Virus record (IMG/VR): IMGVR_UViG_2706794689_000007
Origin: a virus
Taxonomy: Duplodnaviria > Heunggongvirae > Uroviricota > Caudoviricetes
Reading direction: 5' to 3' (one strand)
DNA length: 4,518 nucleotides
Shown here: piece by piece, positions 3,699 to 4,330 of the stretch
Layout of the letters: the number at the start of each line of letters is the position of its first letter
Numbering within the stretch: the first letter of the stretch is position 1
Position numbers and translations under genes: made by a program
Notes under the pieces: model-generated
The model's input: the letters and a program-made list of their open reading frames with translations, nothing else
What the model was told of the DNA's origin: nothing
The model's database searches: none

Positions 3699-3731
3699 TG
3701 TTTATATTGATTTTGTCAGATGTGAGTAAAC

Positions 3732-3765
3732 TCCTTATGGACTTTGTTGTTTTAGTCCATAAGGA
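3732..3765. repeat. Perfect 12-bp inverted repeat TCCTTATGGACT / AGTCCATAAGGA with 10-nt loop
   Basis: Direct reading; overlaps the stop codon and last ~10 codons of the minus-strand ORF 3735-4070. Not followed by a T-run on either strand. Confidence 0.7.
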
Positions 3766-4070
3766 CATATTTGCAGAGTGCAACGGTTATTAAAGCATTC
3801 ATTCAATACGTTATCTGTATTTGTAGGGCATTCCTGGCTATTTTTGATTGAATTCCAGAATGTTTTATTGAATGGTACTACGTTGTAAATGGTTACAGGT
3901 AGCACTTTGTTATTGAGCATGATGCCTGTGTGAGTCAGTGTAAATATACTTTCAGGAGGTAAGAAAGCATCCGATTGATACCAGATTATTAATTTTATTT
4001 TACTCCATATGACTGAAAAAGATATTCCGCATGATGGCTGGATAACTGTATCAATCACAATCCACTTCAT
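3735..4070 (-). CDS. Hypothetical protein (111 aa), reverse-oriented moron in AT-rich DNA
   Basis: ATG (minus strand) preceded by AAGGAA about 6 nt upstream. A 111-codon ORF is unusual in such AT-rich sequence. Hydrophobic N-terminus and 5 Cys. Possible promoter TTTACA-15nt-TATACT upstream on the minus strand. No family recognised. Confidence 0.4.
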
Positions 4071-4330
4071 TTAGTTTCCTTGTTTATGCCTTGCTGGTGA
4101 TGTTCTGAAAAGTATAAATGATATTTTTGAATGTAAACCATAGAGCAGAATTATTTTTCTGATGTTGTTTATTGTTTATTTAAATGCAGGGTGGTTTATA
4201 TCTCGTCTTGTAGTTTATCCATGCATATCTGCTTGATAATCAGGTTTTTATTTAAGGTATGGTTTTGTGTTTTTTCTGTATTACATGTCAGGTATTTTAA
4301 AGAATTATTTTTCAGATGGTGGAAAGAACC

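Follow-up and report, generated by a model that had tools for sequence, protein, structure and literature searches.

The AT-rich segment between Q and DUF1737 in a lambdoid prophage region carries the Shigella form of iraL, an RssB anti-adaptor gene

Introduction

What is the short AT-rich segment that runs against the late genes of a lambdoid prophage, and what does its gene do? The question is raised by a 4,518-nt stretch of Caudoviricetes DNA (IMG/VR record IMGVR_UViG_2706794689_000007), here called the window, which is the late-regulatory region of such a prophage. A sequence-only reading had described positions 3700–4310 as an AT-rich segment with a 111-codon minus-strand open reading frame (ORF) and a Shine-Dalgarno sequence, and had taken it for a horizontally acquired moron whose product is of unknown function. 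In this study, we identify the ORF as iraL, which encodes an RssB anti-adaptor of the IraM/IraL/RssC family, in its Shigella form, and we hold this explanation as a whole with very high confidence. The function had therefore been wrongly left blank, since iraL was characterised in 2014 (PMC4045071) and the structure of its paralogue IraM has been solved (8TWD, PMC10844676).

Gene, function and distribution have been known since 2014, and finding them again adds nothing fundamental. Many pathogenic E. coli and Shigella maintain a high RpoS level while growing, for which IraL is one of the causes, and such a level affects stress tolerance and possibly niche adaptation. New here are the edges of the module and the observation that iraL is intact and under selection in a Shigella prophage degraded by insertion sequences (IS). 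Modest leads for specialists are the conserved tail of four cysteines and the way the gene is constantly placed, antisense, in the stx slot of lambdoid prophages.

Base composition and the minus-strand ORF

The segment and the parts of the iraL gene are as follows, with all positions referring to the window.

3700–4310: AT-rich segment with the minus-strand ORF
3735–4070, minus strand: iraL coding sequence (CDS), 111 amino acids (aa), ATG at 4068–4070 and TAA at 3735–3737
4071–4103, minus strand: iraL 5' untranslated region (UTR), 33 nt, with the published transcription start at 4103
4111–4137, minus strand: likely iraL sigma-70 promoter, -10 TATACT at 4111–4116 and -35 TTTACA at 4132–4137, placed by position relative to the mapped transcription start
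4104–4327, minus strand: iraL upstream/regulatory region, 72% A+T, reaching the module edge
3732–3765, minus strand: perfect 12-bp hairpin with a 10-nt loop, an inverted repeat with 100% complementarity, overlapping the last codons and the stop of iraL

The impression of an AT-rich segment was borne out by computation. GC content over 3700–4310 (611 nt) is 31.9%, compared to 49.9% in the remaining 3186 unmasked bases, which amounts by our own arithmetic to about 9 binomial standard deviations, and the five 611-nt intervals of lowest GC in the whole sequence begin at 3699–3703. At a resolution of 100 nt, GC is 0.25–0.38 over 3701–4350, 0.58–0.62 just before and 0.45–0.58 after, with sharp edges at 3700 (0.62 to 0.33) and past 4300 (0.29 to 0.45–0.58). 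Three runs of N are masked in the window (1274–1489, 216 nt; 2689–2938, 250 nt; 3301–3555, 255 nt). GC at codon positions 1, 2 and 3 of iraL is 0.35, 0.36 and 0.33, whereas Q, orf65 and the methylase gene nearby have 0.43–0.60 at the third position. We infer that the low GC content reflects foreign origin.

The ORF lies on the strand opposite to Q, the methylase gene, the tRNAs and DUF1737, and thus opposite to late transcription, and its ATG is preceded at a distance of 6 nt by AAGGA (4077–4081, minus strand), in agreement with the sequence-only reading. Its product holds five cysteines (residues 14, 81, 92, 97 and 102). A search of Rfam at a permissive threshold gave no match inside 3712–4310 on either strand and thus no known RNA element.

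Identification of the ORF as iraL

The NCBIfam IraM model NF007393 matches the ORF with 162 bits against a cutoff of 121, placing residues 1–110 on profile positions 1–113/114, and the IraM chain of PDB entry 8TWD matches it with an E-value of 3.3e-30. RefSeq labels the ORF 'anti-adapter protein IraM'. K-12 IraM aligns to the protein without gaps at 61% identity, with ~70% nucleotide identity over the CDS. IraL of CFT073 and Shigella has been reported to be 58.9% identical to IraM and to be absent from K-12 (Hryckowian et al. 2014, PMC4045071), so that the identity of 61%, close to the published value, pointed to the paralogue IraL.

Direct comparison with iraL of CFT073 (c1429) shows agreement at 334/336 nt (99.4%) and 110/111 aa, with L74S as the sole residue change; the published definition of iraL asks for at least 95% nucleotide identity to CFT073 over the whole CDS (PMC4045071). 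The exact S74 protein is the RefSeq entry 'MULTISPECIES IraM [Shigella]', found on about a thousand or more contigs, and S. sonnei genomes, 53G among them, match positions 3556–4518 at 100% identity. Because of this identity of both the exact protein and the S. sonnei DNA, the window carries the Shigella form of iraL. The locus of CFT073 IraL (c1429; mBio 5:e01043-14) has the same gene, the same promoter and transcription start region and the same flanks, namely an STnc100 element upstream and a DUF1737 remnant downstream. Besides L74S, the window differs from it in an extra STnc100 copy further upstream and in the IS600 copy that cuts DUF1737, while 4071–4330 contain four differing positions (4073, 4104, 4261 and 4318), all non-coding single-nucleotide polymorphisms.

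The identification was settled by NCBIfam and PDB and not by Pfam. A Pfam scan of the ORF gave no match at E <= 0.01 and, at E <= 10, only a chance match to a Nairovirus family. PF11183 (PmrD) is the precomputed database label of nearly all IraM-family homologues, but current Pfam-A, even with E <= 10 allowed, yields no PF11183 match for either the ORF or K-12 IraM. A discrepancy of version or threshold is the probable cause of this conflict.

Fold, RssB contacts and the cysteine tail

The 90% cluster of the iraL protein contains 1045 sequences, mostly of 111 aa, and about 50 relatives of full length were recovered by a profile search, among them proteins of Salmonella, Citrobacter, Enterobacter, Klebsiella and Cronobacter. 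The ratio of non-synonymous to synonymous substitution rates (dN/dS), computed against four divergent relatives (75%, 65%, 60% and 61% identical), is 0.15–0.19, a pattern which points to a real gene under purifying selection.

An AlphaFold2 model built from 48 relatives reached a mean confidence (pLDDT) of 83.9, and about 90 over residues 1–80; it replaced an earlier, poor model from 16 sequences (pLDDT 59.9). The top PDB match of the model in Foldseek is 8TWD_A (E 9.7e-9, TM-score 0.89, root-mean-square deviation 1.2 A over 77 columns), and the only other significant PDB fold matches are the PmrD structures 4HN7, 2JSO and 2RQX (TM-score 0.71–0.76). IraL is a small protein of the cytoplasm and, according to the model, adopts the beta-barrel fold of IraM and PmrD, in which barrel and helix extend over residues 1–78.

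In the IraM–RssB crystal, 14 IraM residues touch RssB in the clusters I–III (PMC10844676). Ten of these 14 are identical in IraL of the window, the changes being T13S, L75I, H63N and I64V. Cluster I is kept completely (5/5), cluster II includes T13S and L75I, and cluster III includes H63N and I64V. Across the barrel, IraL is 64% identical to IraM.

The alignment of 48 sequences reaches down to 20% identity, and its only invariant columns are C81, C97 and C102, with C92, W72, W30, P12 and P103 each conserved in at least 90%. The tail motif C-P-x9-11-C-x4-5-C-x4-C-P-[YF]-G is present in IraL with C81, C92, C97 and C102 (residues 81–111, window 3735–3830). This tail was removed for the IraM–RssB crystal and called less conserved and flexible (PMC10844676). 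Contrary to that description, the Cys-rich tail appears from the alignment to be the best-conserved part of the IraM/IraL/RssC family, and we propose the four-cysteine tail as a defining feature of the family. Its conservation therefore suggests a metal or redox site. Model confidence over the tail is only 50–72 (pLDDT).

Promoter, leader and 3' hairpin

Transcripts of iraL are documented in CFT073 by rapid amplification of cDNA 5' ends (5' RACE; PMC4045071) and by RNA-seq (PMC12890032), with iraL mRNA at +1.6 log2 at 37 C compared to 23 C in the RNA-seq data. The published 5'-RACE sequence of the iraL mRNA (PMC4045071) matches the minus strand of the window from 4103 to 4072 at 31/32 nt, and the single mismatch is the polymorphism between window and CFT073 at 4073. 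The resulting 33-nt UTR agrees with the end of the published native-promoter construct, which spans -100 to +33 (PMC4045071).

Sigma-70-like -10 and -35 elements have been stated for iraL (PMC4045071), and by our own assignment the hexamers TATACT and TTTACA, separated by a 15-nt spacer, are likely the iraL sigma-70 promoter. Neither hexamer contains a difference between window and CFT073. A consensus promoter scan missed the promoter at the published transcription start because the 15-nt spacer is short. Two minus-strand candidates of the scan, at 4178–4150 and 4019–3992, were rejected, since 2 hits do not exceed the 3.0 expected by chance.

The upstream region and leader show no similarity to the region upstream of K-12 iraM and could not be aligned with it, and homology to K-12 iraM ends at the ends of the CDS. 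This confinement of homology to the CDS is in line with different regulation of both genes. A direct repeat resembling a PhoP box, TGTTTA-ttgtt-TATTTA (4166–4182, plus strand; 11/12), lies 63–79 nt upstream of the transcription start; its score was equalled by 28/500 shuffles, which makes it a marginal, weak lead. Matches to Fur and H-NS motifs in 4104–4327 were no better than in shuffles. The level of IraL has been published to be higher in a fur mutant, and since the Fur motif is at chance level, this rise is probably indirect. Between iraL and DUF1737, we additionally observed a 21-nt direct repeat at 4147–4167 and 4301–4321 (AGAATTATTTTTCTGATGTTG and ...CAGATGGTG, 90%), which may be due to chance in AT-rich DNA.

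The hairpin at the 3' end of iraL folds with -20.4 kcal/mol (z = -4.7), and 0/200 shuffles were as stable. Its DNA encodes an extension, QQSP, that is not in IraM. The hairpin is a candidate transcript-end or stabilising structure and may act by intrinsic termination.

Function and alternative explanations

CFT073 IraL binds RssB in pulldown and two-hybrid experiments, and the log-phase half-life of sigma-S in CFT073 is ~5 min, as opposed to ~2.5 min without iraL. Deletion of iraL lowers log-phase RpoS in CFT073 and S. sonnei, and iraL with 100 nt of upstream DNA raises it in K-12 (all PMC4045071). In the IraM–RssB structure, IraM occludes the RssB receiver domain at its 4-5-5 face and remodels the interdomain linker (PMC10844676). 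IraL thus binds the response-regulator-like adaptor RssB, which can then not deliver RpoS to the ClpXP protease. RpoS is longer-lived and accumulates in growing cells, so that the general stress response of the lysogen is raised. The iraL module appears to be self-contained, comprising a likely sigma-70 promoter, a 33-nt leader, the 111-codon gene and the 3' hairpin, antisense to the late operon. For the S74 allele of the window, RssB binding and RpoS protection would be expected from the published data on CFT073 and S. sonnei. The low GC content probably also reflects silencing of the H-NS type and thermoregulation, and Q-dependent late transcription, by running over the module, would be expected to counteract iraL in lytic growth.

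Other explanations of the ORF were weighed against this evidence. Lambdoid prophages commonly have AT-rich spacers downstream of Q, and with no match to the ORF in the current Pfam library one could suspect a chance open frame in a non-coding, H-NS-bound spacer. However, 111 open codons at 32% GC are very unlikely (~1e-4 per frame start by our own estimate), and the low dN/dS, the about 50 full-length relatives across Enterobacteriaceae, the match to a solved structure and the published genetics and biochemistry all speak for a gene. A chance frame is refuted by how the sequence is conserved and by the deletion phenotypes in the literature, and we give it practically no credence. The hydrophobic N-terminus pointed out by the sequence-only reading, together with four cysteines among the last 31 residues could also suggest a secreted or membrane-anchored Cys-rich peptide. 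The cysteines of that reading stand, but a secreted or membrane-bound product is not supported: residues 2–11 and 16–22 are beta strands 1 and 2 of the modelled barrel and superpose on cytoplasmic IraM, D7 breaks the hydrophobic stretch, and the maximum 19-residue Kyte-Doolittle mean is 1.44. In addition, I4, I6, W22 and K26 are contacts to RssB, a cytoplasmic partner. We consider an exported product extremely unlikely.

Two further possibilities concern the target or the induction of the protein. Given that significant fold matches other than IraM are confined to PmrD structures and that PF11183 is the precomputed label, IraL could be a connector like PmrD, acting mainly on another response regulator (e.g. 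PmrA). Identity to PmrD is only 14–21%, though, and the current Pfam PmrD model is not matched, whereas the barrel is far closer to IraM with the RssB contacts kept, and direct binding to RssB has been published, which renders another main target very improbable. Alternatively, IraL could behave like K-12 IraM, as an anti-adaptor induced by PhoP/PhoQ at low Mg2+ and not in log phase. The identity of 61% to IraM and the PhoP-box-like repeat TGTTTA-N5-TATTTA would favour such behaviour, but the upstream region and leader are unlike those of iraM, the box is marginal, and IraL, expressed from a sigma-70 promoter, is active in log phase without stress, with a fragment starting at -100 being sufficient in K-12 (PMC4045071). 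We therefore regard an IraM-like induction as unlikely.

No evidence contradicts the identification as iraL, and only caveats apply. These concern parts of the explanation given above. S74, which is L74 in CFT073, adjoins the contact residue 75, and the published S. sonnei strain may have carried another allele. Two-hybrid data show IraL touching only RssB's N-terminal domain (PMC4045071), and with two of the four cluster-III residues differing, the IraM structure may misdescribe the binding of IraL in detail. The 3' hairpin is followed by no good U tract (a weak GUUUAC), which makes it a putative terminator of the moron only; promoter and transcription start are supported by 5' RACE and RNA-seq of CFT073 together with sequence identity. 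For silencing by H-NS, the chance level of its motif has to be taken into account.

Module edges and distribution

A three-way alignment of the window, CFT073 and a prophage of EDL933 is identical through 3699, the end of the terminator stem of the STnc100 element. EDL933 diverges at 3700, and likeness resumes at ~4328, three bases ahead of the DUF1737/nanS-p ATG (4331). The true extent of the module is thus 3700 to about 4327, slightly wider than 3700–4310. In EDL933 and other prophages of O157, O145 and O121, the same flanks enclose ~213 bp of unrelated, GC-richer DNA and no iraL; sites lacking iraL are hence not strictly empty but hold different filler DNA. Megablast against 5426 complete E. 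coli genomes places the segment in 1446 of them, at 95–99.5% identity and with hardly any genome having more than a single copy. iraL is also present in four sequenced phage genomes, among them vB_EcoS-640R1, where it lies between Q and DUF1737-holin-lysozyme.

No convincing target-site duplications or terminal inverted repeats were found at the module edges. Recombination between mosaic lambdoid phages, and not transposition, is therefore the probable route by which the module was exchanged. These observations support the interpretation of the iraL module as a moron in the usual sense, being compositionally distinct, separately transcribed, discrete and exchangeable. The composition shift persists on computation, the homologues show intact frames and purifying selection, and transcription in CFT073 is on record. 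That iraL has stayed intact in an IS-degraded prophage suggests that it is retained for a benefit to the host. The flanks of K-12 iraM show no similarity outside the CDS, and the iraM locus could not be shown to be a remnant of the same slot.

Relatives in other prophages

Divergent family members were considered in five contexts, of which two are prophages in a single E. coli assembly, two are loci of E. albertii and one is a further E. coli contig. In all five, the gene follows Q and precedes DUF1737/nanS-p and holin, on the strand opposite to these, although the Q genes belong to three different families. The modules carrying the relatives are lower in GC than their loci (0.37–0.45 compared to 0.51).

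Both prophages of the E. coli assembly GCA_039832115.1 carry an IraL-like gene of 75% identity (L007, 3206–3541; L008, 3173–3508), whose immediate neighbours are Stx-like B/A genes (SLT_beta, 87 aa; RIP, 319 aa) on one side and nanS-p on the other. A toxin-converting phage would thus also carry a homologue of an RpoS stabiliser. A literature search for IraM-family genes in stx prophages found nothing relevant.

Taking the cysteine tail and these contexts together, one may speculate that the tail is a Zn, Fe-S or redox module controlling how stable or active the anti-adaptor is, and that the whole family is lambdoid cargo of the Q-to-lysis slot, placed antisense and sometimes beside stx. We put this combined proposal forward as tentative and as rather doubtful at present. 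If it were true, prophages would raise RpoS of their host while dormant and lose this effect on induction.

Other features of the window

The remaining features of the window are the following.

51–419: Q antiterminator gene
644–841: small helix-turn-helix ORF
992–2009: DNA methyltransferase gene, partly masked
2050–2125 and 2226–2302: two tRNA genes
2379–2568: STnc100-family element, copy 1 (Rfam RF02076, 123.6 bits)
about 2569–3526: ~1-kb segment between the STnc100 copies
3527–3711, plus strand: STnc100-family element, copy 2 (Rfam RF02076, 74.9 bits, gathering score 47)
4331–4504, plus strand: DUF1737 ORF, N-terminal remnant of nanS-p (Pfam PF08410, E 1.5e-15)
4452–4518, plus strand: end portion of an IS600 copy (flank-query positions 286/292–352 match IS600 transposase loci in many records)

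Downstream of the module, the sequence-only reading had named a DUF1737/holin region. DUF1737 is present at 4331–4504, but IS600 cuts it from about 4452, so that the window contains no holin gene. The start codon of DUF1737 was set by correspondence with the annotations of CFT073 and EDL933. In EDL933, the equivalent start opens a 616-aa sialate esterase of the SASA family (nanS-p), whereas CFT073 and 042 contain only a truncated nanS-p pseudogene. IS600 cuts the DUF1737 ORF to 57 aa, with a junction at about 4452–4460 and the frame running into IS600. S. sonnei loci share this junction at 100% identity, and 4458–4518 recurs there at a second IS copy; an exact-match scan of a set of genome contigs for the junction gave no hit. 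Because IS600 truncates DUF1737, the prophage is taken to be defective, with its downstream lysis genes disconnected.

Upstream of the module, two direct copies of the STnc100 family, a small RNA-like element, bracket ~1 kb. CFT073, 042 and strain 300709 have a single copy, adjoining iraL, and phage vB_EcoS-640R1 has two diverged copies. Copy 2 ends in a GC-rich terminator stem (3679–3700) with a T tract, and the iraL module follows directly after the stem. Judged against strain 300709, the first masked run covers part of the methyltransferase gene, the second a portion of the segment that follows STnc100 copy 1, and the third a DUF3927 gene with the 5' part of STnc100 copy 2. A 113-aa ORF at 2949–3290 (plus strand) has no Pfam or NCBIfam match, and RefSeq annotates nothing there; at the DNA level, conservation is 99% or more in 1179 complete E. 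coli genomes and reaches 100% in S. sonnei.

Directly after Q, at positions 424–533, a promoter-like TTGATT...TAAATT precedes a GC-rich hairpin with a T run, and a match to isrK at 452–523 is sub-threshold (18.9 bits). This is probably the true pR'-tR' short-transcript unit, distinct from the STnc100 copies. ARAGORN calls the tRNA at 2050–2125 tRNA-Met (CAT), while RefSeq gives tRNA-Ile for the homologous gene. Such ambiguity between Met and Ile is usual for lysidine-modified tRNAs of the ileX/ileZ type.

Comparison with known systems

Besides iraL of CFT073, a close known system is IraM (YcgW/ElbA) of K-12, which shares with IraL the fold, the target RssB, the four C-terminal cysteines and 10/14 contacts. 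Its promoter and leader are unrelated, however, it lacks the four-residue extension QQSP of IraL, and its gene adjoins the icd/e14 junction and not the Q-to-lysis slot. Mg2+ starvation induces IraM, which contacts both domains of RssB, whereas IraL acts in log phase and was seen to contact the N-terminal domain only. RssC of Salmonella and other enterobacterial proteins named IraM have the length (~107–125 aa), the barrel and the Cys-rich tail in common with IraL, but only 20–41% identity.

PmrD (PF11183), the connector that protects phospho-PmrA, displays the same unusual fold of beta-barrel and helix and follows the same logic of a small protein binding the receiver domain of a response regulator. 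It differs in lacking the Cys-rich tail and in its target, and IraL is not a member of this family at the level of sequence. In comparison to the lambdoid morons of the Q-to-lysis interval (stx, bor and lom type), iraL is likewise discrete, compositionally deviant and independently transcribed cargo expressed from the prophage. It occupies the interval which in Stx phages holds stx; unlike stx, it opposes late transcription, so that no boost from Q-dependent read-through would be expected.

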